NCBI GenBank assembly: GCA_000002435.2
Contig: CM018789.1
From: Giardia intestinalis
Taxonomy: Eukaryota
Strand: one strand, 5' to 3'
DNA: 64,000 nt
Of this stretch, positions 34,201 to 53,046 are shown piece by piece. Positions within the stretch are counted from its first letter, which is position 1, and the number at the start of each line of letters is the position of its first letter. A program made the translations under genes and the position numbers. The notes below the pieces were generated by a model, which searched no databases, was not told where the DNA came from, and saw nothing but the letters and a program-made list of their open reading frames with translations.

Positions 34201-37200
34201 ATGTTCGTCAAGGAGAGAGCCTATACTTAGTTCTTCAAGAAGATAGGCAAGCTAATATTGAGAGTTCTAAAACCACTATCATGGAACAAGTCATGAAATC
34301 TATCCCCCAATCTATTGCATGCTACATTTCACGGCAATCTTCTTTCTGTGACAATCAGACATTCTACTTCGTGTCTCTCGTGAACCAGCCCATCAGATTT
34401 GAATTTATGGGATATATCATTTTGGCTAAAAGTATTAAGGATTTGGGCATGTCTACTAATATATTGCACTCTGTTTCGGCTACATTTATTGCCAATTTTA
34501 TTTATCATGCAAATCAATTAATTTCTAGCGCCGTGTCTACGTCCTTTTCAAAGATCATTGCTAAATGGAACTCCTTGCTACTTAATTGCGTTATTTACTA
34601 TCGCGAGGCACTGCTACAATCACCTAGGTTCTTACGCATCCTTATGGCTTATGAAGAGAAAGTCTGCAACAAAATCAAGCAAGGACTTAATTCAAAGATG
34701 CCAAACCGCTTTCCAAACGTCATCTTTTATTCGCCCAGAGAGTTAGGCGGGCTAGGTATGCTATCCGTTGGATCTGCAGGCGTATACCCTTCTAGCGAAG
34801 AGCTAAATCCAAAATATCCCGTTGCAGAGCGGTCTCGTCGTTGGGATCAGAAACACCAGGAGGTGCTACTTCCAAGTGTCATTCACTTTATTTCTCCGTG
34901 GGCTGATGAGCTTAATCGTAGCTTCCTTGGGTACCAGCGTCTTCTGTCTATCTTCTGTGAGTTTTACAATGGGCGGTCCCCTCTCTTCGGCGCACAAACT
35001 GGGTTTTACGTGTATGAATATGATGCGTGTGGGGCAGAGCAGCAGTATAGTTTCAAAGAAATTAGCGAATGCTTATCCAGTCAATGGACTGGATTTGCAG
35101 TCAGTACCTTCCGTGAAGCAGTTTTTCAAGCACTCTCCCAAGGGTCTAATAGTATTGAGCAGCAATCTCCTCTTGAGATTGCATGGGCCAATGGATGCAT
35201 ACCGCGGCTAACAACTCTGATACATTACGCCAAAGACCTTTATTGTCTGTTGTACCGCAATCCGTTTCTACATCACTTGGCTAAGGGCATCAGTATAGGC
35301 AACGCGCTAACTCTTAAAAGTTGGTACAACAAAAAGCTTCTGGGATCACTGTATGATCTTCAAGGATACAAGAAGATTATCACGGCAATATTTGGTGGGG
35401 TAGAAGAAATATTGCACCACACACTCTACCCAGCAACAGATTTTAGTGATTATAAATCCGTGGTGTGGAGCACAGCAACCGAACATGAGACTGGATTGGC
35501 AAAAAGAACAAACCTAACACGTGCAAGGAGACAGGGGCTTTCGCAAATTCCGAACCGACGCTTTGCTCTCTGGTGGAGTCCCACGATCAATCGTAGTTCT
35601 GTCTACATCGGATATCGTTCACAAATAGACTTAACCGGAGTGTACATGTGTGGGAAATTGGCCACTTTAAAAACAGCATATGTTTCTCTGTTCAGGGGCC
35701 ATGCTTGGCCAATGATTCACTCCTCATTGGTCAAAACCCTTCTTGCAATCTTACAAGACGCTTTTCGGGGCCTTCCGCTTGATACCATCAAGGCAGAGTC
35801 CGTACATCCCCGAAAGTCATATCATTACCATACAAGCTGTGCAGACATTTCTGTAACATGGACACGTTCATTGACTGTTCAGCAGGATTATTCCATTCAG
35901 ATACAAAAGGGTTCATCAGAGCCGCACCATAATTCACAAGAAGAGAGTAGTGGCGCACACGCGTCTTCAGGAGAACAAGTCGATAGCTGCACACATTTAT
36001 GGTGGATAGACCTCCATCTCACGTGGGGAAACGTCGATACATGTACTTCTCTCGCGAAGTACTCTAAAGACCGTCACAAATATTATACATCTGATCGTTC
36101 ACGAGGGATATACAGGAGCCCACACGGAATTATTATTTGTATTGACTTACTATATCGTGAAATTGCAGCCTATGGATCTGTCCCAACTATAGCGATTCCA
36201 GCCATAAACAAGGCCATTTCAGAACTGTTGGAATCCTTACACAGTAATACTATGATGAACATGCTTGCAGACAGAATCAGGACGCAACTGGGACTAAGTT
36301 CTTCAAGTGTGCACAAGCTCACAGACATCACTCCATCCTCCATCGGAGATCTGTTCACTGGCAAGGTAATAATAGTCGATGACTCCTTGGCATATAACTT
36401 CAGGATGCTGAACAGAGATGATACGCGTGCATCTCGTGTTATCATCAATGGGTTCATTTCGATCTTCAATCCCCAGACTGGCCGCTTGGTACTTTCGGTC
36501 GTCCATGCAGATACGTATGCAGGCCAGAGTCGCCGGGCTTCTCTAAGCCGCTGGCGTACGGCAGACTTACTAACGGGGTACATCTCTTCGCTTCCACAGG
36601 CCTTACGACCCACGACAGTGGTTGTATGTTCCAGGCAATCTATTGATCCAATTAGGACCCTGCTTAGTGTGCTTAATCCACCTATTGTTGTACGCGGAAC
36701 TAGTTTGCACTGGCAATTTCAAAATATACGTAGCATGGTTATCTGCGCAGAAGGGCAAGAAGGGCATATTCGAGGAACTGTGAATGAGGTGATTCAGCTT
36801 CAGCAAACCAGTATCTCTTTAAGCATTGATTTATATGCTCAGTTTCGAGGCACGGATGAGCAGACGGGGTTAATTTTGGAAGGTACTCCCATCCAACATT
36901 TTATTGCTGTCCTACTTATGTTGCAACTTGCTAATCTTTCACCACTCACCATATACAAAATAATATCTCAATCAAATCTGGAGTTGAAAAAATCCCTACC
37001 AGAAGCGGAACTAGCTTACAGACCCACGTATGCATCACTGACTACTAAGTCTATGGAGCGACTCTCAACCATAGGCAACCTCACAGACTTTGTCCTGCAT
37101 CTTCCTCGGGCGCCTTATCAACAATGGTGCCCAGTGATCTCCGCGATGACCGAGCGCGTAATAAATGAATCTGCTAAAAAGCTAGGAGTACGTTCAGACT

Positions 37201-38222
37201 GTTTATCTCCAGCTGAAAAGAAGGACCTTGTATTAGGCGCAGAGCTGGTAATATCTAATGCTCCCGAACGCAGAACAAGCATCTTCTCACGACTTGTGTT
37301 ATCTGCCAACACTCTGGGCGAACGGATGCTTTCATCGACACAACCAAAAGAAGTCACTGACGTTAGATCACAAAGCCGACTCAGCAATTTGCATTTCGGT
37401 GAGCAATGGTTATGCCTCCAAAGAAACGCTATTTTCTGCAAACTATTTGCGGCATCACAACCCAAAGCAGATGCAGACACAGACTCATCTTTTTGTAGAT
37501 CGATTATTGACCAAGCTGTTGGTGCTACTACAGATAACAGTTCACGACTTTGTGTTATAATTGGGCAGGTCACAAAATCGCAACCAATCTTACCATGCTC
37601 AGGCCTGCAAGCACCAGTTGCTCTGACATTTGGATTGCAACATAGTGTTACTATGAATGGGAAGCCCCGAACACTTATTGAGCTACGACATATACGTGCT
37701 TATCTGGGAGGATGGGACTTCTTCTCGTACGCCGCGATACCAATAACGGAGTTATTACAAGATGTTAAGTTCACAGAGGAGAAAACAGGGATGAAGTTTT
37801 ACGGGGTACTGGTGGATTTTTCACGGGCAAAGCTTTTCCCAGATAAGCTACTAGAAAGTTCTACATTGAAAAAATCCAGTGTCGATATAATTTCTCTGGT
37901 AGGAAGAACAACCTCCGTATGCTTACTAACCTTCTATTTTGGGGCCGATAGAATAGAGAAGCAATCCAATTTTTGCACGTATTACCTAAAGCAATCAAAC
38001 ACTGACAAGACTGTGGATCAAAAGGAGTTCAGTCGTGTGCGAGTACACGTGGCATCTAATTACAGTCTAGAGTTTTATTGCATTGATCCCATTACCCAAT
38101 GCGAAAAGCCAGGTGGCATCGATCAATCAGTATCGTATCAATCATGTATTCAGTTCTCCAAGCTTTTTGCCTCAACGCAGATAGAATGGGAAGAATTGGA
38201 ATGCCATGTGGATCGAATATGA
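31293..38222 (+). CDS. PRP8: Pre-mRNA-processing-splicing factor 8 (Prp8), 2309 aa
   Basis: ATG at 31293. STKERKQSRFGKAFHLVRELTKFLKYMVDTHIAHRL...SVYRYKYKISNQIRQLK matches the highly conserved Prp8 stretch TTKERKKSRFGNAFHL.RE...D.H.QYRL...G.YRYKYKLM.QIR. The length is typical of Prp8. Confidence 0.9.
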   Translation: MQSLKPRLLQSVQPTLVGSTENSSFPSQPRSMARKLAAMGSLKFLVYAIRKALETMPQPWEAVRYVTVAHQKAGALTYILSKSTSSEHDLIRQWTRVCDSIPKDAAPPSYPIFDGTAPYMCYRDNLAFARPLPLFKTNAIIRFHRLKNLCADLSATQKILLSDSRRSLKSRDKFSFEQHLPSVFTNLSSFHGDDNFLMYQHVYLYHAYTEDQLLTYPALYYPISMHPPANLPIFLSPSPSAFCGTFLDRRKSNLMHINSSAMLSRSAQINEYSDAIQSSLQTSTYRSPSLLSPPLSSARKSFHKREIKSKSVTTILRTSPQFSIISNVDWLEAAQHLLAQAHDAMTLMLHRKNITFLSLDYNFNLTHTKVLSTKERKQSRFGKAFHLVRELTKFLKYMVDTHIAHRLLLIDYPTFLTGIHHLFLNIGTVTSVYRYKYKISNQIRQLKALGMLCGDVPFYHPLQCVMNSYLRGLSPLLEAYLSRLLARTAGIIDKDSGNSSRRVTHQRSLANQIVEQRNRYAGRFVSMYPQFTTRSAMTKLFLAHLAEAWLCWRAGMAYDQVYSQMSPEVADLVQAYVSERADLYTASIACTKKRIASNKWIAKSEHYKYCGRAGRQDMRELIVANAAYLCEPIQKDLRVSLGTVYSLAYLCITVAARVCACGSHIPFPSQEFEYDGKLLELALRDLREDVLSGSILTVADRQLLTLIEKATSLPHEFLIRIKEILLKKRTFDAVQIEYAEARTCVYPIYLTTGLTRVVDVYFTYYLSYQITSSPLHYLLFKRGFSSIDLSNPYSMELPAELTIRYCKHVHSTCSGLPATDGEGCFLVHMHLNTDSYFRGFNLHVIGKVISLLFDPVISSFLITRLSSSFYFKDMTYTAVRGVAPSFQFSHFLLTLLLSILDLTILLHYDEQPFSPTIILRVVTFIIAFAKDYRQSGVPLSQLWLRKACLEKGIDLSRLSIFYGTYKLLSYVRQGESLYLVLQEDRQANIESSKTTIMEQVMKSIPQSIACYISRQSSFCDNQTFYFVSLVNQPIRFEFMGYIILAKSIKDLGMSTNILHSVSATFIANFIYHANQLISSAVSTSFSKIIAKWNSLLLNCVIYYREALLQSPRFLRILMAYEEKVCNKIKQGLNSKMPNRFPNVIFYSPRELGGLGMLSVGSAGVYPSSEELNPKYPVAERSRRWDQKHQEVLLPSVIHFISPWADELNRSFLGYQRLLSIFCEFYNGRSPLFGAQTGFYVYEYDACGAEQQYSFKEISECLSSQWTGFAVSTFREAVFQALSQGSNSIEQQSPLEIAWANGCIPRLTTLIHYAKDLYCLLYRNPFLHHLAKGISIGNALTLKSWYNKKLLGSLYDLQGYKKIITAIFGGVEEILHHTLYPATDFSDYKSVVWSTATEHETGLAKRTNLTRARRQGLSQIPNRRFALWWSPTINRSSVYIGYRSQIDLTGVYMCGKLATLKTAYVSLFRGHAWPMIHSSLVKTLLAILQDAFRGLPLDTIKAESVHPRKSYHYHTSCADISVTWTRSLTVQQDYSIQIQKGSSEPHHNSQEESSGAHASSGEQVDSCTHLWWIDLHLTWGNVDTCTSLAKYSKDRHKYYTSDRSRGIYRSPHGIIICIDLLYREIAAYGSVPTIAIPAINKAISELLESLHSNTMMNMLADRIRTQLGLSSSSVHKLTDITPSSIGDLFTGKVIIVDDSLAYNFRMLNRDDTRASRVIINGFISIFNPQTGRLVLSVVHADTYAGQSRRASLSRWRTADLLTGYISSLPQALRPTTVVVCSRQSIDPIRTLLSVLNPPIVVRGTSLHWQFQNIRSMVICAEGQEGHIRGTVNEVIQLQQTSISLSIDLYAQFRGTDEQTGLILEGTPIQHFIAVLLMLQLANLSPLTIYKIISQSNLELKKSLPEAELAYRPTYASLTTKSMERLSTIGNLTDFVLHLPRAPYQQWCPVISAMTERVINESAKKLGVRSDCLSPAEKKDLVLGAELVISNAPERRTSIFSRLVLSANTLGERMLSSTQPKEVTDVRSQSRLSNLHFGEQWLCLQRNAIFCKLFAASQPKADADTDSSFCRSIIDQAVGATTDNSSRLCVIIGQVTKSQPILPCSGLQAPVALTFGLQHSVTMNGKPRTLIELRHIRAYLGGWDFFSYAAIPITELLQDVKFTEEKTGMKFYGVLVDFSRAKLFPDKLLESSTLKKSSVDIISLVGRTTSVCLLTFYFGADRIEKQSNFCTYYLKQSNTDKTVDQKEFSRVRVHVASNYSLEFYCIDPITQCEKPGGIDQSVSYQSCIQFSKLFASTQIEWEELECHVDRI

Positions 38223-39769
38223 GTAGAACAGTCATATTTGGCAAATCTAATGGACGAATCGTAGTTTGGCCTCAAGAGAACGGAATGCTGTGCCGCTGAA
38301 GCTCGGCGTCGGCGGAACCCAGCAGCCCAGAGTAAACCCCTCATCTTCCTCACACGCTCCGGGACACCAGACTGATCCGCAAGCCGCTGGCCACGCTGGA
38401 GTGCCCCGAGGCGGCCCAGGAGAGTGCGCGTGCTGAGGCCTGTCCATTAGACCCTCCTAGCAGCAGAGCGCCGTCGTGGCAGGAGAGCATGCCCCTTGCA
38501 TCGGTCGGTCGGTTGCTGAGACCCCTGGTGCTCTGTCTGTGAGAGGAGACTGCCCATGAGGGCCCTGTACGCTGCTCCCCTGCACCGACTGGCACAGCAG
38601 GGGGCCGGATGCCGAGGGACACCTCCAGAGTCTCGGGTCTCTACAGGACAGGACACACGGCAGAGACATCTGCATGCGGGCCGGGAGTCCTGCTCGGCCC
38701 CGTCCCTCGTCTGACGCCTTGGTCTCTCGGGAGCCCTGTCAGCACCACTGGAGGCAGGGGCTCTCCAGGAGCGCCGCACCGGGCCCGCATGGAGTGGATG
38801 GCCCCACAGCCACTGCACGGGCCTCTCGGGCAGGGGGTCTCTCTGCCACTGCAAGCTGCAGCAGCGTAAGGGTCGCCCCGTGTGCTGCCCTCTTGCCGTG
38901 GCGGGGCTTCAGGCATGCCATCGGGACTGTCCGACGGTCACCGGTTGAGCCCTGTGTGACAGCAACAGACGAGAAGACTGCCCCACAACGACATGCCCTC
39001 GCTGGAGGACTGTCAGCAGAGCGGAGGAAGCTACGGCCACTGGGGGAGTGAACGATCTCCGTGGGTCCAGGGGCGCTGCACTGCGGGCCTGTCGGCTCGG
39101 CCTCTGATGGGTACCACGATCACTCTGCCCGGTCTGGCAGATCACGAGGGGTCTGAGGCCGGCCTATTGGGAGGAGGACCGGGACCCTCGCTGATGGTTG
39201 AGCAGAATCACTACAGGGGGGCACGAGCTCGAGTAAGTGGGAGCCTTCTAGCAGGGTGCATGTCAACCGAGCGAGGAGAACGACATGGCAGTCATCAAGG
39301 AGCCATGACCTCTGAGCCTTCTGGGCTCTGCGCCGGGCCGGACATCAGCACAGCCCGCCTGCCGGTAGCACTGCCGCGGGGGTCTCCGTCGTGTGAATGC
39401 CTGGGGTGAGCCGCTTGGGCACGGAGACGGGCTGTGCGGCGCCCAAGAGTGGAAGATCGCCACGCTCTGGTGCTGTGGGCCGAGTCGAGACAGGGGCTCC
39501 AAGGTAGGGGTGGAACAGCGCTCCCCCCGTGTGCCGTGCTGGGTGGCCACAGACGGGCAGGGGCCGCTGGGGGCAGGCGTCGCCGTCGAGACAGAGGAAG
39601 GCCAGCCTCGAGCATGCCAGTGCCAGAGCGCATGGCAAGTGCACAAGGACACGGCTCCCCCCTCTTCCATCGGGGACGGCGGGCCGGGGGCTGAGAGGTG
39701 GCTCGGCACAGACGGTGGCATCAGGGTGCGTCCATGGCCGGCGCAGGGGCCACCGCAGAGGACCCTCTA

Positions 39770-41815
39770 ATGTTCCAACTGATACCCCTGTTCATGGCAA
39801 GCGCGCTCATGGCGCCTTGTCAGCCAGATGGGAATCACCTGACCACTTGCGCACACGAAAAGTGCGAGACGGTCGGGTCAGCCGAGATTTGTACCGAGTG
39901 CAAGGTCGGAGGCGTCCCGGTCGACGGCTTCTGCCGACCCTTCGGCTCCATCCAGGCCGCGGCGGCCGGGTGCACCAAAGCAGACGGGGCTGCTCTCGAC
40001 AAGATGACAGCAACCTGCGAGAAGTGCGGCGACGGGTACTTCCTCTTCATGGGCGGGTGCTACAAGACGAGCCTGTGGTCTGAAGTCTGCACAGCAGCCA
40101 GTAATGGAGTATGTACTACTTGTAATACAAAGAACGGCCTGTTCAAGAACCCGGCTGCAACAGTGACTCCTGGTAACGAGTGCATCCTGTGCTCCGATGC
40201 TACAGATAGAAACGGGGTCATGGGAGTGGAGAATTGTCTCAAGTGCACGGCGCCAGGTGGCAATACAGGAGCAGCCGCGTGCACTGCCTGCAAGGCTGGC
40301 TTTTATGGGTCCGGTCCATGCACAAAGTGTCATGACGATTGTGCTACTTGCAGTGGCGCAGCAAATAATCAGTGCACATCTTGTAAGGCTGGAAAGTACC
40401 TGAAGACCGATACTAACACTTGCGTAGATGCTGGTAGTTGTAATGGAAACACTTATGCTGATCCAGTGACAAGGACATGCAAGGATTCTGCAATAACTGA
40501 TTGCACCACGTGTGAGTACAACCCGGCAACTGGGGGCCCAAAGTGCACAGCCTGTGGTAACAGTAAGAAGGTGAAGACAGCCATCGACGGCGCCACAACG
40601 TGCGTGACGGTTGCATCCGAATGTGTGGATGAGAATCACTTTAAAGATGACGGTAACACTATGTGTGTGCTATGCAGTGATACCAGCGGGTCAGACCCAA
40701 ATAAAGGGGTAGCGCAGTGCAAGACATGTACTAAGAATGGAGCTAACAAGCCTGAATGCAAGACATGCCTCGAAGGGTATGTTCTGAAGGGGTCTGGTGC
40801 TGACGCCATTTGTGAGTCTTGTGGAAACAACTGTGCAGTGTGTACCGCAGCCAATGATATATCGACTTGTACAGGGTGCCTTCCCGGGTACTTCCTAAAA
40901 GCCGAGGGTGGAACAAAAGAGTGCGTCCCGTGTGATGACACAGCCAAAGGTGGTCGTGAAGGCTGTAGTCTATGTTCTAGCAACGGTGGATTTAAGTGCA
41001 CAGATTGTAAAGCGAACTACAGGAAGCAGTCTAATGGAGATGCAGGCGATGACTATACATGTGTGAAGACCTGCGAGGACCCTACTGTGTGTGGGGGGAC
41101 GTCTGGAGCCTGCGATGCCATAGTGATCGATGCTAATGGAAAGGAGCATTATTACTGTTCATACTGTGGAGAGACCAATAAGTTCCCCATTGATGGACTA
41201 TGTACTGATAACAAGGGAACAAATGCTGGGTGTACTGATCATACTTGCAGCTACTGTGCTGCCGGGTTCTTCCTGTACATGGGTGGCTGCTACAAGATTG
41301 ATACAGTACCAGGAAGCTATATGTGCTCCAAATCAACAACAGCAGGTGTCTGTGATACACCCAATGCCAACAATAGATTCTTCGTTGTCCCAAAGGCAAT
41401 AAGTGCCGAACAATCTGTGCTGGCTTGTGGCAACCCATTGGGCACAATTGCAGGCGGTAATGCCTACGTCGGAGTGGAGGGGTGCTCCCAGTGCACGGCC
41501 CCCGACGCTCGAGCTGATGGCGGCATGGCGGTTGCCACGTGCACGGCCTGCGAGGACGGCAAGAAGCCCGGCAAGAGCGGCACCGGGTGTGTGGCGTGCC
41601 CTGATGCTAACTGCAAGAGCTGCACGATGGATGACGTATGTGAAGAGTGTGCTGATGGGTTCAGTCTAGACAATGGTAAGTGTGTGTCTTCTGGCACTAA
41701 TAAGAGCGGCCTTTCTACCGGCGCCATCGCTGGCATCTCCGTCGCAGCCATCGTCGTCGTCGGGGGCCTCGTCGGCTTCCTCTGCTGGTGGTTCATCTGT
41801 CGGGGGAAGGCGTAA
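39770..41815 (+). CDS. Variant-specific surface protein (VSP), left copy of an inverted pair
   Basis: Cys-rich with many CXXC motifs, GGCY motifs, a single C-terminal TM and the ...GGLVGFLCWWFICRGKA tail. The track ORF starts on GTG at 39698. In-frame ATGs are at 39734 (MAGAG...) and 39770 (MFQLIPLFMASALMAPC, signal-peptide-like). I chose 39770. Confidence 0.85.
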   Translation: MFQLIPLFMASALMAPCQPDGNHLTTCAHEKCETVGSAEICTECKVGGVPVDGFCRPFGSIQAAAAGCTKADGAALDKMTATCEKCGDGYFLFMGGCYKTSLWSEVCTAASNGVCTTCNTKNGLFKNPAATVTPGNECILCSDATDRNGVMGVENCLKCTAPGGNTGAAACTACKAGFYGSGPCTKCHDDCATCSGAANNQCTSCKAGKYLKTDTNTCVDAGSCNGNTYADPVTRTCKDSAITDCTTCEYNPATGGPKCTACGNSKKVKTAIDGATTCVTVASECVDENHFKDDGNTMCVLCSDTSGSDPNKGVAQCKTCTKNGANKPECKTCLEGYVLKGSGADAICESCGNNCAVCTAANDISTCTGCLPGYFLKAEGGTKECVPCDDTAKGGREGCSLCSSNGGFKCTDCKANYRKQSNGDAGDDYTCVKTCEDPTVCGGTSGACDAIVIDANGKEHYYCSYCGETNKFPIDGLCTDNKGTNAGCTDHTCSYCAAGFFLYMGGCYKIDTVPGSYMCSKSTTAGVCDTPNANNRFFVVPKAISAEQSVLACGNPLGTIAGGNAYVGVEGCSQCTAPDARADGGMAVATCTACEDGKKPGKSGTGCVACPDANCKSCTMDDVCEECADGFSLDNGKCVSSGTNKSGLSTGAIAGISVAAIVVVGGLVGFLCWWFICRGKA

Positions 41816-42935
41816 GTAGCATCCACTTAGGTAGTAAACGCGTCACTGTACAGCCTACTGCTCTTTCACGATGCCAGTAGACCCTCAAAGCCCGGTTTTT
41901 CCTAAGATCTCACCCCTTCTATGCAGCGTGAAAGAGTAGAAAATCCAAAAATAAGCAGCGGGACCGCCCGGCATGTCTACCGCTCTTCTGCCCTGGAGCC
42001 AGCAGACGACGGCCCAGATGCCCCCGTTGTGATCGGGACCTGTGTGAGCCTTCCCGGCGGCGCCCCGGCCTGGCTGGCGCTCTAGTCTCCTCAACCAGCT
42101 CTGCGCGATCCGGCCCCCCGCCGAACCCTGTGGGCCACCGTACTTCTCCGTGCCTCAATAGCGTCCTCGTCGCCCGAGACCGGCCGGGACGCCCTGGCCG
42201 CTGCAGGAGAGGCGCGTCGAGCGATGATCCTCGACCGAGGCCGCCCCCAGCTCCATGGCCATCTGAACGTGCCCGCAGTGGCCGTGCCGCGGCAGTGGAT
42301 TAGCCCGAGGGCGACCCGTGCCGCCCGATCTACGACCCCTGTTTTTGGATTTCTGCGAAGCAAGGCCTAGTTCTGTCATAGGGCGGCTATAGTAATGGTT
42401 AGCATAGCCCGATGGATACAGAGCCGGAGAAGACGCGGACCGGATCTTGTGCTAACTGATGGCGTGCCGTCTACTGTCTACAGCGCAGAGGTGATGCGTA
42501 GACGCACCTGCCCCCGCTATAGGTGGTCCTTGCAGTACCAGACCCGGTAGAGTGGGCTGCCGTCAGGAGCCAGCACAGCGGAGGGCGCCATGTGCCGATA
42601 GGAGCGTGCCCGGTCGCCCCTGGTTACACCGTAAGCGACGCAAGGGCGGGTAGGCGCGGGTCCCACTGTAGCGACACGTGCAAGACACAGCCGCGCGTCA
42701 TCAGGGCCTCAGAGAGCACTGGCTATGATACGGAAGGGCTACAGCCAGCCCGTTCCAAAGAAGGGGAGCCACACAGGCCCGAGGATCACGTCTCCGGAGA
42801 AGGGAAGTTCTGTCCCGGTGGCCGAGATAATGAAAGGGCGATAACTGGAGTGCCCGCTGACCTGAGCCTGAACAGCTCGTGGCACGCATGCAAGGCGCTC
42901 ACTCTGGGACACAAGCGGACATCCGGTTCACGGCC
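39859..42935. repeat. Left arm of a large inverted duplication (~3.07 kb: VSP coding sequence from codon ~30 onward plus ~1.1 kb of 3' flank)
   Basis: The VSP proteins are identical from ...KCETVGSAEICTECK to CRGKA. Flanking junk ORFs in the track are identical between 41885-42951 and 45853-46878 on opposite strands. Manual reverse-complement comparison places identity between ~39859 and ~42935. Confidence 0.8.
41825..41839 (+). promoter_or_regulatory. VSP-type extended polyadenylation signal ACTTAGGTAGTAAAC
   Basis: It lies 10 nt after the stop of the VSP at 41815 and matches the known Giardia VSP 3' motif (ACTYAGRTAGTRAAY containing AGTRAAY). Confidence 0.7.
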
Positions 42936-45838
42936 TCGTGTGCTCCGCTAGCGGTGGCCTCCCCTTTGGTCCTGCTTCATAGCGGGCGAGGGCGGGCCTT
43001 TGTGTTCGTTTTACAAGGCTTCCACCTGACTCGACGGCAGTAGCCGTTGGCGCTCTGGCTCCACTGGCGGTCCTGATTCGGTGAGAGTCTATCTTGGCAA
43101 TAGGAAGTGGATGAGGCCGTGGCTCGCTATGAGGGAGCGTCGTTATTTGTCTTTGGTCGCTGCTTCCCCTGGGAGCGGATATGTCTTCTGTCACTGTGGC
43201 TCTCTGGAACTAGTGATAGTCGCCTCTGTTGCCCCTCGGTGTCCGTCCAACCGTGGTTCTGGGGTAGCACGCCTTCTCAGTCGCAGTCACTCTGGTCCCA
43301 CAGTGGGTCCAGTTGGTGATTGGAAATAGGCTGACAGGCGGCAGTTGCTGGGTATTCATTGGCTGCCACAGGACAGCGAGGGCCGGACAGAACTCTCGGT
43401 GCCCGCGGGGCCCTCCTGGCGTCTCTGGAGTGGGGAGCCGTCCATCCCATAGGTGGTTGAGAACGTCCTTGTGTCCCTGTCTTCTCACTGTGGTATCCCT
43501 CTGGTTGCTGGATGACACCCACGCCCACCGCCTTGCACTTGTGACGGGCTCTGCTCTGGTCGCCGGGCTGGTCTGATCTCCAGCCTGCGTTGCACTCCCC
43601 GAGACACGGAGGCAACGATCACACAGGGCCCCTAGTTGTCCCTCTGCACCAGTGGAGGAGAGCCCCTGTCTGTTGTCTACAATCATCCCATCCTCAGAGA
43701 GCCTGGCCTGGGCGGGCTGCCGTGCGGGCTCTGAGTGCGCCCAGCAGCACAGCCCTAAAGGTAGCCGGGTGGAGTGAATCATCGTGGGATGCACGTAAGG
43801 AGCGCACAGGTCCGGGGCGCCCGAACAGGCTCAGCCCTCGCACCGGCTCCTCCCCGGCCGCCTCAGTCGCGGCGCTAACAGGAAGACGCGTGTCCTGTTC
43901 GACGACCCGGCACACGGACCGACGGCCGGCGAATGCACATGGCAAGGTGGAATAAAAAGTTTGGAACGTCGGCGCTCGCGCGGATCGGGATGCGGCGTTC
44001 TCCAGGCTGGGAGGCCGTGCGTGCGGGCATTACCTTTAACATGTTCCTCACCACGGCCCCAGGCTGATGGGCGGCCGAGGCCTTGCCAGCGTCACGCACG
44101 CCTCTTGCCGGCATTGGGCCGCTCGGGATCGTACATAGGCAGGGCTGCAGAGGCCTTCCGCGGCTCCTGCGGGCAATAGTCTGCCACGGAGAGCACGCCC
44201 AGCTTGGGAGCTCCTCAGGATCACCGTGCAGATCATCGAGACCGGTTCGACGGGCCCCACGTTGAAGGAGGCGCACGGACCGGCGAGCGTGCCGTCTTTG
44301 CAGGCAGGCCCTCGCTGGCCGGGGTGGCGGGGCTCTCCTGTATCTCCGCCGGAGGACGCCCTATCTACTGGCAGCATTTCCACAGTTGCAACGCTACAGG
44401 GACGGGCTGCAGCTCTTCCGCAGGATCTCGTCGGACAGGCAGTTCGGCGTACTCTCACGTGCACTCGCAGGAGCTCCAGGGGCTGCTCCCCGCCCTCGTA
44501 GAATAGCACCCCGCACGCCCCAAAGCCAAATCGAAATGCAGCAGGTGCAGTCGACTCTTCTCGGGTTGTGGCGCTGATCCAATCAGACGCCGCGGCACGC
44601 CCCGAGCAGGCCTCGTCCAGCAGCGGGTGCTCTAGCCGCGCCCCTGAGGCAAGTCTGCTTCTGACCCCGTCCCTGTGCCGACCCCAGCGAGCCCCCGACG
44701 GCTCCGGAGAAGGAGCGCCTTGCGGAGCCCCCTACTGATCCCTCGGTGCAGGAGGATCCCCGGATTACCGACTTGCGTGCGGCAGGCGGCGGAGCACCCC
44801 AGGCCATCCTTACATCTACATGCCCAGCGAGCGCTGTAGCGGGCCGAGATGAAGCCGCGGGCGCCGATGCCGGGGCGCTGGCCACGGAGGCTGCGGCCCT
44901 ACAACCATGCGACCCCTTGGTTCGCGTTTTAGTTTTTGGGGTCCCAAGTTAGCGCCCCCGGAGCAGCACCGGCTGTACACTGTTCACTGCACTCGGTCGG
45001 TCGCATGGTGTAGCAGCTACGGCTCCTCTAATTACGGCGCTTGATGTGTTTACTACTGGGGGTGCTGCTCTCCGTTCTACGGGGTGGCAGGAGTGCTCCC
45101 GCGTGCACGGTAGTACCAGTGGACGCCCCTCAGCTGCCGGGCCGGAGCAGCTCTTGGATGGGTGGACCTATCTTCCTCCGTGCAGCCGTTCCTCGGGCCT
45201 AGTAGACGTGCTTTGCTGTGTCCCGCAGCCCGGATCCTTGCCTTCAGACGCCAGCACGGAACTCTCTAAATTTGTCCTCCTGCGGCGTCCTATGCTACCA
45301 TGCACACTTCGTTTTCATTAAGCCCTTAGGGTTGCAGTCCAGGACTACCGGCCCCCGCATCATCAGATATGGTTGCTGACTGCGGCCGCTTACGCAGTCG
45401 CAGCTGGTTCCGCACTGCCCCTGTATCGGTAGCCTTGGCCTGCATCGCCGGTGTGCGGCCCACTTTGCTCTGCGGGCATACCACACACAGTTACTAGCCT
45501 CGTGATGTGGTGCACCGCTGGGGCAGATAATAGCAGCAGCAATCCTGCAGCCCCGTGTGGTCGTCTGGCAGTGGATGCGAAGGTTTGCAGGCGGGAGCGG
45601 AGGGCCGGGGCTGCTCTTGCTCACGTCACCGGGCGCCGTGGTCAAGGGCTCCGGAGGCACGCCCAGCCCTCTGCTGGACGAGGATCGATGGGCCGCTCAG
45701 AGCCCCGCAAGCTGCGTCCAGGCTGGTATTAGGTGGCCCAATGACGTGGCGACGGGAGCTGTGAGGCGAGACCTGTCGCGCGCCGAGCGTCGGGCCATTG
45801 CTACACCGACTCCCCGAAGGGACACACTCAGCCCGGGG

Positions 45839-48800
45839 CCGGATGTCCGCTTGTGCCCCAGCGTGAGCGCCTCATGCGTGCCACGAGCTGTTCAGGCTCA
45901 GGTCAGCGGGCACTCCAGTTATCGCCCTTTCATTATCTCGGCCACCGGGACAGAACTTCCCTTCTCCGGAGACGTGATCCTCGGGCCTGTGTGGCTCCCC
46001 TTCTTTGGAACGGGCTGGCTGTAGCCCTTCCGTATCATAGCCAGTGCTCTCTGAGGCCCTGATGACGCGCGGCTGTGTCTTGCACGTGTCGCTACAGTGG
46101 GACCCGCGCCTACCCGCCCTTGCGTCGCTTACGGTGTAACCAGGGGCGACCGGGCACGCTCCTATCGGCACATGGCGCCCTCCGCTGTGCTGGCTCCTGA
46201 CGGCAGCCCACTCTACCGGGTCTGGTACTGCAAGGACCACCTATAGCGGGGGCAGGTGCGTCTACGCATCACCTCTGCGCTGTAGACAGTAGACGGCACG
46301 CCATCAGTTAGCACAAGATCCGGTCCGCGTCTTCTCCGGCTCTGTATCCATCGGGCTATGCTAACCATTACTATAGCCGCCCTATGACAGAACTAGGCCT
46401 TGCTTCGCAGAAATCCAAAAACAGGGGTCGTAGATCGGGCGGCACGGGTCGCCCTCGGGCTAATCCACTGCCGCGGCACGGCCACTGCGGGCACGTTCAG
46501 ATGGCCATGGAGCTGGGGGCGGCCTCGGTCGAGGATCATCGCTCGACGCGCCTCTCCTGCAGCGGCCAGGGCGTCCCGGCCGGTCTCGGGCGACGAGGAC
46601 GCTATTGAGGCACGGAGAAGTACGGTGGCCCACAGGGTTCGGCGGGGGGCCGGATCGCGCAGAGCTGGTTGAGGAGACTAGAGCGCCAGCCAGGCCGGGG
46701 CGCCGCCGGGAAGGCTCACACAGGTCCCGATCACAACGGGGGCATCTGGGCCGTCGTCTGCTGGCTCCAGGGCAGAAGAGCGGTAGACATGCCGGGCGGT
46801 CCCGCTGCTTATTTTTGGATTTTCTACTCTTTCACGCTGCATAGAAGGGGTGAGATCTTAGGAAAAACCGGGCTTTGAGGGTCTACTGGCATCGTGAAAG
46901 AGCAGTAGGCTGTACAGTGACGCGTTTACTACCTAAGTGGATGCTACTTACGCCTTCCCCCGACAGATGAACCACCAGCAGAGGAAGCCGACGAGGCCCC
47001 CGACGACGACGATGGCTGCGACGGAGATGCCAGCGATGGCGCCGGTAGAAAGGCCGCTCTTATTAGTGCCAGAAGACACACACTTACCATTGTCTAGACT
47101 GAACCCATCAGCACACTCTTCACATACGTCATCCATCGTGCAGCTCTTGCAGTTAGCATCAGGGCACGCCACACACCCGGTGCCGCTCTTGCCGGGCTTC
47201 TTGCCGTCCTCGCAGGCCGTGCACGTGGCAACCGCCATGCCGCCATCAGCTCGAGCGTCGGGGGCCGTGCACTGGGAGCACCCCTCCACTCCGACGTAGG
47301 CATTACCGCCTGCAATTGTGCCCAATGGGTTGCCACAAGCCAGCACAGATTGTTCGGCACTTATTGCCTTTGGGACAACGAAGAATCTATTGTTGGCATT
47401 GGGTGTATCACAGACACCTGCTGTTGTTGATTTGGAGCACATATAGCTTCCTGGTACTGTATCAATCTTGTAGCAGCCACCCATGTACAGGAAGAACCCG
47501 GCAGCACAGTAGCTGCAAGTATGATCAGTACACCCAGCATTTGTTCCCTTGTTATCAGTACATAGTCCATCAATGGGGAACTTATTGGTCTCTCCACAGT
47601 ATGAACAGTAATAATGCTCCTTTCCATTAGCATCGATCACTATGGCATCGCAGGCTCCAGACGTCCCCCCACACACAGTAGGGTCCTCGCAGGTCTTCAC
47701 ACATGTATAGTCATCGCCTGCATCTCCATTAGACTGCTTCCTGTAGTTCGCTTTACAATCTGTGCACTTAAATCCACCGTTGCTAGAACATAGACTACAG
47801 CCTTCACGACCACCTTTGGCTGTGTCATCACACGGGACGCACTCTTTTGTTCCACCCTCGGCTTTTAGGAAGTACCCGGGAAGGCACCCTGTACAAGTCG
47901 ATATATCATTGGCTGCGGTACACACTGCACAGTTGTTTCCACAAGACTCACAAATGGCGTCAGCACCAGACCCCTTCAGAACATACCCTTCGAGGCATGT
48001 CTTGCATTCAGGCTTGTTAGCTCCATTCTTAGTACATGTCTTGCACTGCGCTACCCCTTTATTTGGGTCTGACCCGCTGGTATCACTGCATAGCACACAC
48101 ATAGTGTTACCGTCATCTTTAAAGTGATTCTCATCCACACATTCGGATGCAACCGTCACGCACGTTGTGGCGCCGTCGATGGCTGTCTTCACCTTCTTAC
48201 TGTTACCACAGGCTGTGCACTTTGGGCCCCCAGTTGCCGGGTTGTACTCACACGTGGTGCAATCAGTTATTGCAGAATCCTTGCATGTCCTTGTCACTGG
48301 ATCAGCATAAGTGTTTCCATTACAACTACCAGCATCTACGCAAGTGTTAGTATCGGTCTTCAGGTACTTTCCAGCCTTACAAGATGTGCACTGATTATTT
48401 GCTGCGCCACTGCAAGTAGCACAATCGTCATGACACTTTGTGCATGGACCGGACCCATAAAAGCCAGCCTTGCAGGCAGTGCACGCGGCTGCTCCTGTAT
48501 TGCCACCTGGCGCCGTGCACTTGAGACAATTCTCCACTCCCATGACCCCGTTTCTATCTGTAGCATCGGAGCACAGGATGCACTCGTTACCAGGAGTCAC
48601 TGTTGCAGCCGGGTTCTTGAACAGGCCGTTCTTTGTATTACAAGTAGTACATACTCCATTACTGGCTGCTGTGCAGACTTCAGACCACAGGCTCGTCTTG
48701 TAGCACCCGCCCATGAAGAGGAAGTACCCGTCGCCGCACTTCTCGCAGGTTGCTGTCATCTTGTCGAGAGCAGCCCCGTCTGCTTTGGTGCACCCGGCCG

Positions 48801-48903
48801 CCGCGGCCTGGATGGAGCCGAAGGGTCGGCAGAAGCCGTCGACCGGGACGCCTCCGACCTTGCACTCGGTACAAATCTCGGCTGACCCGACCGTCTCGCA
48901 CTT
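45839..48903. repeat. Right arm of the inverted duplication (reverse complement of the left arm)
   Basis: As for the left arm. The inner boundary was mapped by hand to ~45839 (shared ...ccggatgtccgcttgtg...), with small indel differences near the inner edges. Confidence 0.8.
46924..46938 (-). promoter_or_regulatory. VSP extended polyadenylation signal (ACTTAGGTAGTAAAC on the minus strand)
   Basis: Reverse complement of gtttactacctaagt, immediately 3' of the right-copy VSP stop. It is part of the duplicated arm. Confidence 0.7.
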
Positions 48904-48993
48904 ATTGACCTGACAGGTCACTATGTGGTCTCCGTCTTGCTGACAAGGTGCTGCAAAAGAACTCACCACAATATAAAAGGCTGTTAATAACAT
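46948..48993 (-). CDS. Variant-specific surface protein (VSP), right copy of the inverted pair (681 aa from the first ATG)
   Basis: The track ORF 46948-49035 starts on GTG. The first in-frame ATG is at 48991-48993, giving the signal peptide MLLTAFYIVVSSFAAPC. The sequence is identical to the left copy from residue ~30 to the CRGKA terminus. The N-terminal ~30 aa is related but diverged (APCQQDGDHIVTCQVNKCE versus APCQPDGNHLTTCAHEKCE). Confidence 0.85.
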   Translation of the reverse strand: MLLTAFYIVVSSFAAPCQQDGDHIVTCQVNKCETVGSAEICTECKVGGVPVDGFCRPFGSIQAAAAGCTKADGAALDKMTATCEKCGDGYFLFMGGCYKTSLWSEVCTAASNGVCTTCNTKNGLFKNPAATVTPGNECILCSDATDRNGVMGVENCLKCTAPGGNTGAAACTACKAGFYGSGPCTKCHDDCATCSGAANNQCTSCKAGKYLKTDTNTCVDAGSCNGNTYADPVTRTCKDSAITDCTTCEYNPATGGPKCTACGNSKKVKTAIDGATTCVTVASECVDENHFKDDGNTMCVLCSDTSGSDPNKGVAQCKTCTKNGANKPECKTCLEGYVLKGSGADAICESCGNNCAVCTAANDISTCTGCLPGYFLKAEGGTKECVPCDDTAKGGREGCSLCSSNGGFKCTDCKANYRKQSNGDAGDDYTCVKTCEDPTVCGGTSGACDAIVIDANGKEHYYCSYCGETNKFPIDGLCTDNKGTNAGCTDHTCSYCAAGFFLYMGGCYKIDTVPGSYMCSKSTTAGVCDTPNANNRFFVVPKAISAEQSVLACGNPLGTIAGGNAYVGVEGCSQCTAPDARADGGMAVATCTACEDGKKPGKSGTGCVACPDANCKSCTMDDVCEECADGFSLDNGKCVSSGTNKSGLSTGAIAGISVAAIVVVGGLVGFLCWWFICRGKA

Positions 48994-50271
48994 TGAGGCC
49001 CATCGAGGCACTGCTAGCGTAAGCAGACATTTCACCAGTGACTCTATTCTCTAAGTAGCCATTCAGTAACGCACTTGTTAGATATCGCGTCAAAGATGCC
49101 AAAGACCCAAAGAGCTGATCCGGTGCCAACCTTCCCGTTACGACAAAACATAGATTTAGCTATCCTCTCAGATAGCACGTAGCCCGCCCTCTGGCCAGCT
49201 AGTTGAGGACTAGCCTTGCTAGGAGAGTTTCGCGCACAAGAGCATTTCATTGATGGCAGTATCAGTGGCCGCCCTGCGTATCGGCTGGATGATCACCCTC
49301 GGCCACGACTCGAGGAACCGGGCACCCGACCAGAGGCATAGCAACGGTTTGGTTTGTCTACGGCCCTACTACCCCTCGCCAGCAGGGAGCGGGCAGCCCG
49401 AATAGCATCAAGCCTCCCCAGTGTTGCCTCTTCTCTAGTGCGCGGAGGTACCCCTCGTGTCTGGGAGACGCTGTGGTGCGGCTGGCTAGAGCCGGTCAAG
49501 TGGGGAACCACCATTTTAGGGGTGCTGGGACATCATTGCGTGCCCGAAGGCTGTCCACCGTAGCGGAACCATCCCAGATAGGAACAGGTGAGGCACCAGT
49601 TCCTTTAGAGGGGCCTGCGACCGGCGAAGGACGGTCTCTAAAGTGGTCAGTAGGGCCCTTCAGTGCGTGGGAGTCGACAGGGGGCGGGTTCACCAATAGT
49701 CTGTGGTGCAAGCGGGTTGGGTCGTATGACAGACGGCGTCCCTGAGCAGGGGGACAGTCACAGTGCGTCGCGATAGAACGTAGCCATCCTCCACGGGGCA
49801 TCGCTCCTGCCGGGCTTCAACAGTGGAATCTCGGGGGGACAGTGTTCGAGGCATGCACTGGTGACCCGTGGCTCGGGGCTGCTGGACATTGCACGGCTGG
49901 CTCCATCGGGTCGCTGGTCAGGCATTCAGGAGAATCTAGGAGTCCCTTGGCAGACCTTGTGACTGGCACAGCAGGAGAGCTGGTCGCCAGGAAACCCTCA
50001 CATCACAGCGAAGAGCGAAACATGACCGCCGTGTAGCCGTTACTATGGTATGCCTTGCAACACAAGGGAGGAAGCTTACATCGATCGGTCCGTTTCACAG
50101 CCGGCCAGTCACACGAAGGTGGAATCAGCACGGCCCCACCTCTCAACGCAGGCCCACATGAAGGGTAATCTCTGTCAGTGTGTCATACAGCATAGGCAAG
50201 CGTCATGAAAGGGTATAAGCGCGGTAAGTGGAGCTGCCATAACCTTGCGTGACAGGGCTGCGCGGGCCGCA

Positions 50272-51894
50272 ATGTTCTATGCATTTTTGCTGACCGGTCT
50301 CGCACTCGAGCTAGTACGGGCAGCGCAAGCCGGAGACGAATGCGAAGAGGTAGCTAGCAGTGAGCCCAACACTTGCAAGGCCTGTAGCGCCGTCGTCAAC
50401 GGCAAGAAATACTGCTCGCAGTGCAACGGCGGTGGGTCTCAATCTGCCCCAACGGACGGAGTGTGCTCAGCAGACAATAACGAGTGTACCCGGAAGCAAG
50501 ATGGGAAGTGCACACAGTGCGCTAATAAGTCCTTCATGTACAAGGGCGGATGCTACAAGGATAGCCAGGCACCTGGCAACACGATGTGTGAAACAGCAAA
50601 TGCTGGAGTGTGCACACAGGCTAAGGAAGGATACTTCCTGCCGCCGGGCACTGATAACGCACACGACTCGGTTGTTTCGTGCGGGGATACAACGGGCGTG
50701 ACGCTTACTGGCGATAAGAAGTACACGGGCGTGGCCGAGTGCGTCACCTGTACTCAGCCAGGGCAACTATCAATTGGTGGCACTAAGGCCGCCATATGCA
50801 CCAAATGTGCCGCAGACCTCTACTTGAAAATAGATAGAGGCGTTATGGAGTGCGTCGCGGAATCAGGATGCGGCGAGGGCTTCTTCCCGACAATCGTCGA
50901 CGGTGTTAAGAAGTGTGCTGGCTGTAGTGAAGCTGGAAGCGGTGGCATAGAAGACTGCGAACTATGCATACCTAGAGCACCTGCTCCTGAAGCAGGAGTC
51001 AAGGTCACCTGCTCTAAGTGTCATGCTAGTAAGAAGGTCAGCCCCCTCAAGGACGAGTGCATGGACAACTGCCCCGCCGGGACATACGACAAGCAAAACG
51101 TCTGCACCCCCTGCCACTCGTCGTGTGCCAGCTGCCAGACCGACGACAAGGAGACCTCCTGCACGGCCTGCTACCCTGGACACTCCCTTCTGTATGAGGC
51201 CAACGGAGCGACTGGGAGGTGCGTCAAGGAATGCACTGGTGCGTTCATTACCAACTGTGCAGACGGGCAGTGCACGGCTGACGTGGGGGGCGCGAAGTAC
51301 TGTGCCCAGTGCAAGGAGGGATATGCCCCAATCGACGGAGTGTGCACAGCAGTAAAAATTGGGAGAGACGCGAGTGTATGCACAGCTGCAAGCGGGAAGT
51401 GCACGGCGTGCACAGGAGCATACGCCCTCATTTCTGGTGGATGCTATGGTGTGGCGAAGCTTCCTGGAAAGGCTGTCTGCACGGCAGCTAACAATGGAGA
51501 GTGCACTACTTGCGCGAACGGACAACAGCCCAGTGGAAAGGTCTGTCCGACATGTCCAGCTGGCTGCTCAAAATGTACAGGAAGTGCTCCTTCACAGCAG
51601 TGTTCGGAGTGCTTCCCGGGATACTATAAGTCCGGAACAAAGTGCGTAGCATGCGACAAGGATGATGGAAGCATTAAAGGCGTACCAAACTGTCTGAGCT
51701 GCAAGGAGCCAGCCAGTTCTTCCGGGGCTGTTACTTGCTATGTCAAGACAGACGGCACTAACAATGGCGGAAGCATGAACAAGAGCGGCCTTTCTACCGG
51801 CGCCATCGCGGGCATCTCCGTCGCTGTCATCGCTGTCGTGGGGGGTCTCGTGGGCTTCCTCTGCTGGTGGTTCATATGTAGAGGGAAGGCATAG
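50272..51894 (+). CDS. Variant-specific surface protein (VSP), 540 aa from the first ATG
   Basis: The track ORF starts on TTG at 50245; the ATG at 50272 gives MFYAFLLTGLALELVRAAQA (signal peptide). Cys-rich CXXC repeats, GGCY motifs, a C-terminal TM and ...GFLCWWFICRGKA. It is followed at 51897-51911 by ACTTAGGTAGTGAATAC. Confidence 0.85.
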   Translation: MFYAFLLTGLALELVRAAQAGDECEEVASSEPNTCKACSAVVNGKKYCSQCNGGGSQSAPTDGVCSADNNECTRKQDGKCTQCANKSFMYKGGCYKDSQAPGNTMCETANAGVCTQAKEGYFLPPGTDNAHDSVVSCGDTTGVTLTGDKKYTGVAECVTCTQPGQLSIGGTKAAICTKCAADLYLKIDRGVMECVAESGCGEGFFPTIVDGVKKCAGCSEAGSGGIEDCELCIPRAPAPEAGVKVTCSKCHASKKVSPLKDECMDNCPAGTYDKQNVCTPCHSSCASCQTDDKETSCTACYPGHSLLYEANGATGRCVKECTGAFITNCADGQCTADVGGAKYCAQCKEGYAPIDGVCTAVKIGRDASVCTAASGKCTACTGAYALISGGCYGVAKLPGKAVCTAANNGECTTCANGQQPSGKVCPTCPAGCSKCTGSAPSQQCSECFPGYYKSGTKCVACDKDDGSIKGVPNCLSCKEPASSSGAVTCYVKTDGTNNGGSMNKSGLSTGAIAGISVAVIAVVGGLVGFLCWWFICRGKA

Positions 51895-51951: not shown

Positions 51952-53046
51952 GTGATATGCACAAAGGCTAGTGATGGAGTATGCACTACTTGTAAGACAG
52001 ATAACGGCCTGTTCAAGAACCCGGCTGCACCTCAGAAGCCTGGTAATGAGTGCATCCTCTGTCATGATGCCACGGGAGCAGATGGATATATGGGAGTCGA
52101 GGGCTGCGCTACATGCACCAAGTCAGACAGTAATAAGGGGGCAGCCACGTGTACTGCCTGTCAAGCAGGGTACTACAAGGACTCTCAGGCATGTAGCAAG
52201 TGTGATGGTACTTGTCTGACCTGCGATGGAAGTGGTCAGAATCAGTGTACATCGTGCCCAGAGGGGAAGTACTTGAAGGGTGATAAGACTTGCGTAACTA
52301 GTGATCAATGCACGAGCACCGTTTATCCAGACCCAGAGTCTGGAACGTGCAAGGAATGCAGTACGATAGATCAAGCATGTACTACCTGTAAGTACAATGC
52401 GACTGTCAGTAAGCCCCAGTGCACTGCCTGTAATAACAATAAGAAGGTGAAGACGGCCATCGATGGCATCACAACATGCGTCGATATAAGCTCTGGCTGC
52501 GAGGATGCTGATCACTTCAAGGCAGATGGTGATGCTGCGTGTGTCTTGTGCAGCGATACCAGCGGATCAGACCCAAAGAACAAAGGCATTGCTGGCTGTA
52601 AGGCTTGCACGAAGACAGCAAGTGCCAATCCAACCTGCTCGGAGTGCCTGGAGGGATACAAAAGTACCGGAGTTGGTTCAGTAACATGCACCCCCTGTCA
52701 CGCCAACTGTGCCACATGCTCAGCTGAAACTGCCGAGGATAAGTGTCTGACCTGCAAGACTGGGTTCTTCCTCGTTGAAGTTACACAACCGGCAGGAAAG
52801 TGTGTCTCATGTAGTGACACAAACAATGGGGGCATCGATGGATGTGTGGATACCTTACAGCATCACACCCGTCCAACTCAGCCATGCACAGGAGTCCCAT
52901 TCTTCCCCCAGGATCTGGTCCAGTGCTCAGCTGGTTCGGATGCCCTACCGCACCTTGTTGGAGACTGCATTGAAGCTACTGATCCGGCGGTGCTCTGGAC
53001 TCACTACCTACCATCAGATTGTCTTTGTTTTCGCATATTTACATAG
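51952..53046 (+). pseudogene. Truncated VSP fragment (internal Cys-rich region only: no ATG, no signal peptide, no TM or CRGKA tail)
   Basis: The frame opens on GTG directly after an in-frame TAG and has no in-frame ATG before residue ~46. It aligns to the middle of the 39770 VSP (CTTCNTKNGLFKNPAATVTPGNECILCSDAT... versus CTTCKTDNGLFKNPAAPQKPGNECILCHDAT...). It ends in non-VSP sequence (...LPSDCLCFRIFT) without the conserved tail. Confidence 0.6.

Follow-up and report, generated by a model that had tools for sequence, protein, structure and literature searches.

A 64,000-nucleotide (nt) stretch of chromosome 1 of Giardia intestinalis WB clone C6 (NC_051856.1, a 1,485,438-bp record), referred to here as the window, carries two convergent genes for variant-specific surface proteins (VSPs), GL50803_00112113 (copy 1) and GL50803_0050375 (copy 2). 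Together with about 1.1 kb of downstream DNA each, these genes form a genuine, near-perfect inverted repeat with arms of 3.07 kb. Copy 2 is a contiguous native gene, and copy 1 is a chimera whose 5′ end came from a different VSP lineage. The likely explanation for this structure is a palindromic segmental duplication that proceeded from right to left as an older event and was followed by gene conversion between the arms.

A repeat search returned one long inverted pair in the window, 39860-42911 and 45852-48903. When 39860-42890 was compared base by base with the reverse complement of 45873-48903, no mismatch was found over 3,031 nt, and a perfect match of 3 kb cannot be attributed to chance. 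At the inner edge the left arm contains two extra nucleotides (TG) at 42891; past this indel, 42893-42926 and 45839-45872 are still 94% identical (32/34; blastn E=2e-8), and beyond this 34-nt edge zone no more than background similarity is left between the unrelated sequences on either side. At the outer edge, identity drops sharply from 100% to 13/30 within 30 nt. The full arms measure 3,067 nt (left) and 3,065 nt (right), and the unique spacer between them (2,912 nt) has a G+C content of 64.0%, compared with 48.5% for the whole window. Perfect identity reaches 1,075 nt past the stop codons, or 1,111 nt when the degraded 36-nt zone is included, and 5,132 nt separate the two stops in a tail-to-tail arrangement. 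These measurements agree with an initial annotation made from the sequence, which had claimed apparently identical arms of ~3.07 kb, a 2.9-kb spacer and a duplicated unit that includes, besides the gene, ~1.1 kb of 3′ flank and is thus larger than the coding sequence (CDS). The divergence of more than 2-3% across the arms that it had named as grounds for doubt was not found.

Both genes encode VSPs, as had been proposed. Each product of 681 amino acids (aa) matches Pfam PF03302 (E=3.9e-43 and 1.1e-42; 148 and 147 bits against a cut-off of 31.4), contains 79 cysteines, 27 CXXC motifs and GGCY at residues 95 and 505, and ends with a transmembrane segment followed by the CRGKA tail (...AIAGISVAAIVVVGGLVGFLCWWFICRGKA). 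The N-termini, MFQLIPLFMASALMA and MLLTAFYIVVSSFAA, are by inspection hydrophobic and signal-peptide-like. The 5′ limits given for the open reading frames (ORFs) in the initial annotation (39698 and 49035) were GTG-extended: the true ATG codons, at 39770 in copy 1 and 48993 in copy 2, each lie inside a VSP initiator motif of the (T/C)AATGTT type (TAATGTT at 39768-39774 and CAATGTT at 48989-48995, respectively). Downstream, the extended polyadenylation signal CACTTAGGTAGTAAACGCGT is located 9-28 nt after the stop codon of both copies (41824-41843 and 46920-46939). With an initiator, a signal-peptide-like N-terminus and a polyadenylation signal, both copies look intact. Sequences listed in Table S1 of a 2022 preprint by Rodriguez-Walker et al. 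(10.1101/2022.03.07.483299) provided the gene names, and exact look-up the protein accessions.

The two proteins are identical at 662 of 681 residues, with full identity from K31 (KCETVGSAEIC...) to the CRGKA terminus. Codons 1-30 agree at only 42/90 nt and 11/30 aa and the DNA upstream is unrelated, in keeping with the diverged 5′ end that had been reported for this locus. All 19 differences between the products fall within the first 30 residues, and this number decreases to 7 if signal-peptide cleavage is assumed at residue 15.

The outer junction was analysed by a four-way DNA comparison of both copies with the 5′ CDS of the WB paralogues GL50803_00114674 and GL50803_00137614 (preprint Table S1). 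Over CDS nt 1-90, copy 1 matches GL50803_00114674 at 80/90 positions and GL50803_00137614 at 40/90, whereas copy 2 matches GL50803_00137614 at 85/90 and GL50803_00114674 at 44/90. Over CDS nt 91-299, both copies are identical to GL50803_00137614 (209/209, compared with 189/209 for GL50803_00114674). The perfect tract that copy 2 has in common with GL50803_00137614 (CDS nt 52-299) spans the arm edge and reaches 39 nt outside the arm. Because this homology is unbroken across the edge, copy 2 is a contiguous native gene of the MLL lineage. Copy 1 is a chimera in which an MFQ-lineage 5′ end, consisting of the promoter region, the TAATGTT initiator, the signal peptide and ~15 mature residues, is fused in frame at codon 31 to an MLL-lineage body, so that recombination at the outer edge took place within a VSP gene. 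A similar division is seen at the protein level, where the first 30 aa of copy 1 agree with P0011 at 27/30 positions and those of copy 2 agree with VSP4A1 at 27/30 and with P0010 at 28/30. Mosaicism extends further into the family: VSP4A1 has the N-terminus and the last ~240 residues in common with copy 2, P0005 has residues ~180-320, and VSP4A1, P0005 and GL50803_00137614 have other perfect segments in common with the palindromic VSP.

Evidence bearing on the inner junction came from isolate DH (assemblage A2). The longest spurious ORF of the spacer has relatives in the old WB annotation and in DH, and the DH contig AHGT01000149.1 is colinear with a block that covers most of the spacer and the 3′ flank of the right arm (90.4% identity over 3.37 kb), with no break at either 45838/45839 or 45872/45873. 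The match of the same contig to the left arm ends at 42926. In a three-way alignment, DH tracks the right-hand context into the spacer, and the left-hand context is unrelated. Judged against DH, the left arm has the derived state at two of the three sites where the arms differ, and the right (source) arm has it at one. This contig shows that the spacer and the right flank are one ancestral block, and says nothing of the WB locus itself. Because DH colinearity crosses only the right inner boundary, and because copy 2 is native, the left arm would be the derived copy. We thus infer a polarity from right to left, with support at both the outer and the inner junction.

Taken together, these observations are consistent with a model in which an inverted copy was made of a 3.07-kb unit, comprising the body of GL50803_0050375 from codon 31 to the stop and ~1.1 kb of 3′ flank, and was placed across a ~2.9-kb block of non-coding DNA derived from repeats. 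There the incoming copy would have replaced both the body and the downstream flank of a convergent VSP already resident at the site, a gene of the other 5′ lineage whose promoter and initiator, signal peptide and first ~15 mature residues would remain as the 5′ end of GL50803_00112113. The arms would then have been held identical by arm-to-arm gene conversion, with the innermost 36 nt escaping (limit 42890/45873). The outcome would be two independently promoted genes whose products differ only within their first 30 residues. In line with this model, the arms differ only by a 2-nt indel and two substitutions, and all three changes fall in the innermost 36 of 3,067 positions, a clustering with a chance probability of (36/3067)^3 = 1.6e-6. 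This clustering fits the earlier proposal of very recent duplication or ongoing gene conversion and favours an older inverted duplication later homogenised by conversion, which is the simplest reading. Continual generation or homogenisation would also lead to identical pairs recurring in both G. intestinalis and G. muris, as has been documented.

Several points weigh against a two-step history. The absence of differences over 3,031 nt is equally expected from a single very recent duplication, and the three edge differences could represent junction-associated repair errors rather than age. Only one site identifies a change as derived in the source arm, and the outgroup used for it is paralogous rather than orthologous, since the VSP-like gene on the DH contig is a different one, with a GRRKA tail and the opposite orientation. 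Moreover, the 9-kb structure as a whole rests on the PacBio reference and the literature. A single inverted duplication, arising for example by fold-back or template-switch replication with a breakpoint in the resident VSP, would leave arms that are merely young and would need no ongoing conversion. The abrupt outer edge agrees with such an event, allelic and strain divergence in WB is so low that little change would be expected in a young duplicate, and the clustered inner-edge changes could be scars of break repair. However, one edge difference appears to be derived in the source arm, which is not expected from mutagenesis at the junction of a new copy, and identical inverted pairs occur at many loci and also in G. 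muris, a recurrence that maintenance explains more easily. We therefore regard a recent duplication without conversion as a serious but rather unlikely alternative to the older, homogenised duplication.

The locus might instead have caught identical inverted pairs in the course of arising by directional conversion of a convergent VSP by its partner, rather than by duplication and transposition, a proposal to which we give little credence. If true, it would mean that one antigen body had been placed under a second, unrelated promoter and signal peptide, and if such events were also frequent in growing populations, they would provide a DNA-level route for changing the antigen encoded at a VSP expression site. 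VSP switching in Giardia is regarded as epigenetic or post-transcriptional, without DNA rearrangement. The initial annotation had named such palindromes as candidate substrates for VSP diversification by recombination. This needs qualification, as recombination between identical arms can only flip the spacer, so that a reciprocal exchange would merely invert silent, gene-free DNA; the diversification that is visible lies in the chimeric 5′ junction of copy 1. What the palindrome provides is a second gene, under its own promoter, for almost the same antigen, together with a nearby template for repair by conversion; a doubled chance of expression and a built-in repair template are candidate selective benefits.

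A functional role for the palindrome as a hairpin or antisense generator, in which convergent read-through would produce long double-stranded RNA feeding the RNA-interference-type silencing proposed for VSPs, is very improbable. This idea was assessed with published strand-specific RNA sequencing (RNA-seq; tables of preprint 10.1101/2022.03.07.483299). The geometry of convergent identical genes 5.1 kb apart permits it, and the pair is nearly silent in the clones analysed there, with sense values of 0 transcripts per million (TPM) by unique mapping and 1.9-4.0 TPM when two-locus reads are counted, alongside a fairly high antisense signal of 173-290 TPM in the multi-mapping table. However, silent single-copy VSPs show similar antisense levels (125-238 TPM for 137613 and 98-223 TPM for 137614). 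Furthermore, at the convergent VSP1267 pair antisense was 68.7 TPM in clone 2, where the pair is on (sense 17,987 TPM), compared with 117-148 TPM when silent, and the strong extended polyadenylation signal that follows the stop codon in both copies of the present pair also argues against read-through. The published RNA-seq thus gives no support for a hairpin or antisense role, and we take the palindrome to be a structural outcome of recombination rather than a means of regulation.

That a long-read assembler falsely duplicated and inverted one VSP locus is scarcely credible: identical VSP pairs were once questioned as artefacts and no short-read contig was found that crosses the region (contigs carrying Prp8 stop at 38339 in 8/10 assemblies), but the distinct 5′ ends are joined to different unique flanks (Prp8 on the left, GL50803_0013727 on the right), both genes were apparently present on separate 2007 Sanger contigs as VSP159 (GL50803_112113) and VSP181, the inner edges are degraded differently around a 2.9-kb unique spacer, neither of which missed-adapter palindromes produce, and the reference was assembled at ~200x PacBio coverage. 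The artefact that the initial annotation had allowed for is accordingly very unlikely. The coordinates of the features are collected in Table 1.

Table 1. Features of the palindromic VSP locus (window coordinates; a full stop in the strand column marks features given without strand).
Feature	Position	Strand	Remarks
VSP copy 1, GL50803_00112113 (KAE8301282.1/XP_001704836.2)	39770..41815	+	681 aa; codons 1-30 of MFQ lineage, 31-681 identical to copy 2
VSP copy 2, GL50803_0050375 (KAE8301283.1/XP_037901545.1)	46948..48993	-	681 aa; native MLL-lineage gene
Copy-1-specific 5′ coding segment	39770..39859	+	signal peptide and first ~15 mature residues; junction 39859/39860
Copy-2-specific 5′ coding segment	48904..48993	-	85/90 nt to GL50803_00137614
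Left arm	39860..42926	+	perfect over 39860-42890; 42891-42926 is the degraded inner edge (2-nt TG insertion, 2 substitutions); putative derived copy
Right arm	45839..48903	-	perfect over 45873-48903; putative ancestral or source copy
Duplicated non-coding 3′ flank, left arm	41816..42890	+	62% G+C; extended polyadenylation signal CACTTAGGTAGTAAACGCGT at 41824-41843
Duplicated non-coding 3′ flank, right arm	45873..46947	-	polyadenylation signal CACTTAGGTAGTAAACGCGT at 46920-46939
Unique G+C-rich non-coding spacer	42927..45838	.	no Pfam domain, Rfam hit, tandem repeat or internal symmetry
Dispersed repeat 'S' in spacer	43130..43672	-	~540 nt; related segments in DH
DH-colinear block	43435..46741	.	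AHGT01000149.1, 90.4% over 3.37 kb

The spacer and the duplicated flank are non-coding. A six-frame Pfam search of both found nothing at E<=1, each frame contains 27-43 stop codons where 35.6 would be expected by chance, Rfam returned only a chance serC hit outside the spacer, and no tandem repeats were found in the spacer. A larger, degenerate palindrome was considered and rejected, as self-complementarity of the spacer is limited to the 34-nt edge zone. Two patches, 43000-43499 and 45000-45499, show an excess of T over A on the + strand (AT skew -0.31 and -0.26, respectively); because both have the same sign, they do not reflect palindromic symmetry.

The dispersed repeat 'S' within the spacer has relatives in the DH genome. 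Two inverted copies of it, 99.5% identical to each other over 400 nt, lie at the ends of AHGT01000149.1 (6-405 and 6102-6500); these repeats enclose the rest of the block and the GRRKA-tailed VSP-like gene, and so represent a different palindrome built with the same repeat family. In AHGT01000160.1 (4047-5594), two remnants of reverse transcriptase (RVT_1), both with frameshifts and oriented like 'S', are found ~600 nt 5′ of 'S' (82-83% identity), a context in which 'S' may be the 3′ part of a dead non-LTR (long terminal repeat) retrotransposon. This agrees with the description of retrotransposon relics and repeated, gene-free DNA around VSP pairs (preprint 10.1101/2022.03.07.483299). Relics of reverse transcriptase itself were considered for the spacer and rejected: tblastx with the DH contig that bears the reverse transcriptase matched segment 'S' only, and no reverse-transcriptase homology was detectable in the window.

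To the left of the palindrome, Prp8 (31293-38222) lies upstream of copy 1. Look-ups of Prp8 and of the primase gene found only short-read Logan contigs, which stop short of the G+C-rich VSP block, at 38339 on the left and at 52704 or 53058 on the right. Of ten Logan assemblies that carry an identical Prp8, eight end their contig exactly at 38339, just after AGTAAAC, a poly(A)-like signal 117 nt beyond the stop codon of Prp8. The adjacent block of 66% G+C (38340-39769, up to the ATG of copy 1) therefore resembles DNA that is repeated or assembles poorly. In other assemblies, exact look-ups gave no match to either VSP, to P0010, P0011 or P0123, or to the spacer ORF, and no orthologue of the palindromic VSP was found in other isolates, where the best relatives are mosaics of 62-68% identity (VSP4A1, DH, P15).

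On the right, the VSP neighbour of copy 2, GL50803_0013727, is an AS12-like VSP of 540 aa (MFYAFLLTGLALELVRA...; 50272-51894), arranged head to head with copy 2 across a 1,278-nt intergenic region (48994-50271). A VSP fragment (51952-53046, + strand; Pfam VSP E=6e-9) starts 58 nt past its stop codon. In parts, this fragment matches the 5′ third of the palindromic VSP at 72-86% identity. It is without signal peptide, transmembrane segment and CRGKA tail, and represents a pseudo-VSP in a head-to-tail array. Near the left end of chromosome 1 there is a counterpart of the head-to-head unit, GL50803_0050370 (20623-22266, - strand) and GL50803_00137614 (23545-25614, + strand), with a gap that, by the positions given in the method file of the preprint, is also exactly 1,278 nt. 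The matching units suggest a larger segmental duplication that includes the promoter side of copy 2. Such a duplication could explain both the 'subtelomeric' homology mentioned in the preprint and the ambiguous VSP180/181/183 numbering of 2010.

The arrangement of identical inverted VSPs in WB, and this pair itself, are already on record, and the initial annotation was right in treating the arrangement as known. Descriptions of identical inverted VSP pairs date from 1991, 2010 and 2020. Adam et al. 2010 (BMC Genomics 11:424, PMC2996952) listed 14 such pairs in WB, 10 of them tail to tail, at distances of 2,190-3,847 bp (2,393-3,222 nt for convergent pairs); the flanks of these pairs stay identical up to a sharp limit 139-729 nt from the ORF. 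According to the authors, contigs broke off at such pairs, and a number of pairs had probably escaped detection. Judged by length, mass, cysteine and CXXC content, initiator type and chromosome, copy 1 is their VSP159 (GL50803_112113, a 693-aa model). By the same features other than chromosome, copy 2 is probably VSP181 and the neighbouring gene VSP183. In that study VSP159 and VSP181 were placed on separate contigs, and their pairing went unnoticed (PMC2996952). Xu et al. 2020 (Sci Data 7:38, PMC7000408) reported 19 identical pairs in the PacBio reference, of which 12 are convergent and all lie 2,526-2,813 bp apart; seven identical VSP pairs are known in G. muris. The present pair is absent from Table 2 of Xu et al. 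(PMC7000408) and from the table of Adam et al. 2010, because its distance is larger, its flank identity longer and its 5′ ends non-identical. Rodriguez-Walker et al. (2022 preprint 10.1101/2022.03.07.483299) name the pair as an example of 'partially duplicated' genes. Section 1.5 of that preprint gives a distance of 5,172 nt and a 'head to head' orientation, compared with 5,132 nt between stops and a convergent arrangement in the window; as the VSP1267 pair is also termed head to head there, the orientation terms appear to be inverted in that paragraph.

What is added here is modest: the exact anatomy of the repeat, the chimeric nature of copy 1, the polarity of donor and recipient supported at both junctions, and a negative antisense test. 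The copies can be told apart by no more than their first 90 nt (30 residues); over ~96% of the CDS, RNA-seq or proteomic reads map to both loci, and pipelines that require unique mapping report the pair as silent. The pair is a useful natural marker for the mechanism by which VSP palindromes form, being among the few with an outer breakpoint inside the gene, and donor and recipient can therefore be distinguished. Practical consequences are limited, and the current understanding of VSP biology is unchanged.

The closest known systems are the other identical inverted pairs of the same genome, such as the vsp1267 pair, which are also tail-to-tail, with identity that extends into the 3′ flank and ends abruptly and with a G+C-rich, non-coding middle. 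In contrast to those pairs, the ORFs here are non-identical (codons 1-30 and the initiator variants), the distance from stop to stop is about twice that of convergent pairs (5,132 nt compared with 2,526-2,813 nt), and the identical 3′ flank is longer (1,075 nt compared with 318-559 nt). Of the features by which an identical inverted pair is defined, the locus has the inverted orientation, while its ORFs are not identical and the intervening DNA exceeds 2-4 kb; the flank identity likewise ends abruptly, but 1,075 nt (1,111 nt including the degraded zone) past the stop rather than at 139-729 nt. A more distant parallel is provided by the ampliconic palindromes P1-P8 of the human Y chromosome, which reportedly undergo arm-to-arm gene conversion (Rozen et al. 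2003). Like the locus described here, they have kilobase-scale arms of >99.9% identity, a unique spacer, genes in the arms and sharp ends of identity. They differ in size (9 kb to 1.45 Mb, compared with 3 kb here) and in their host, as Giardia is an asexual or para-sexual tetraploid protist, and conversion is deduced here from the edge pattern alone. Finally, while nothing at this locus indicates the programmed switching of antigen-family conversion systems, copy 1, as an in-frame mosaic of two VSP lineages, resembles the products of mosaic gene conversion in Giardia VSPs (Adam 2010; Xu et al. 2020 for G. muris) and in the VSG genes of Trypanosoma.

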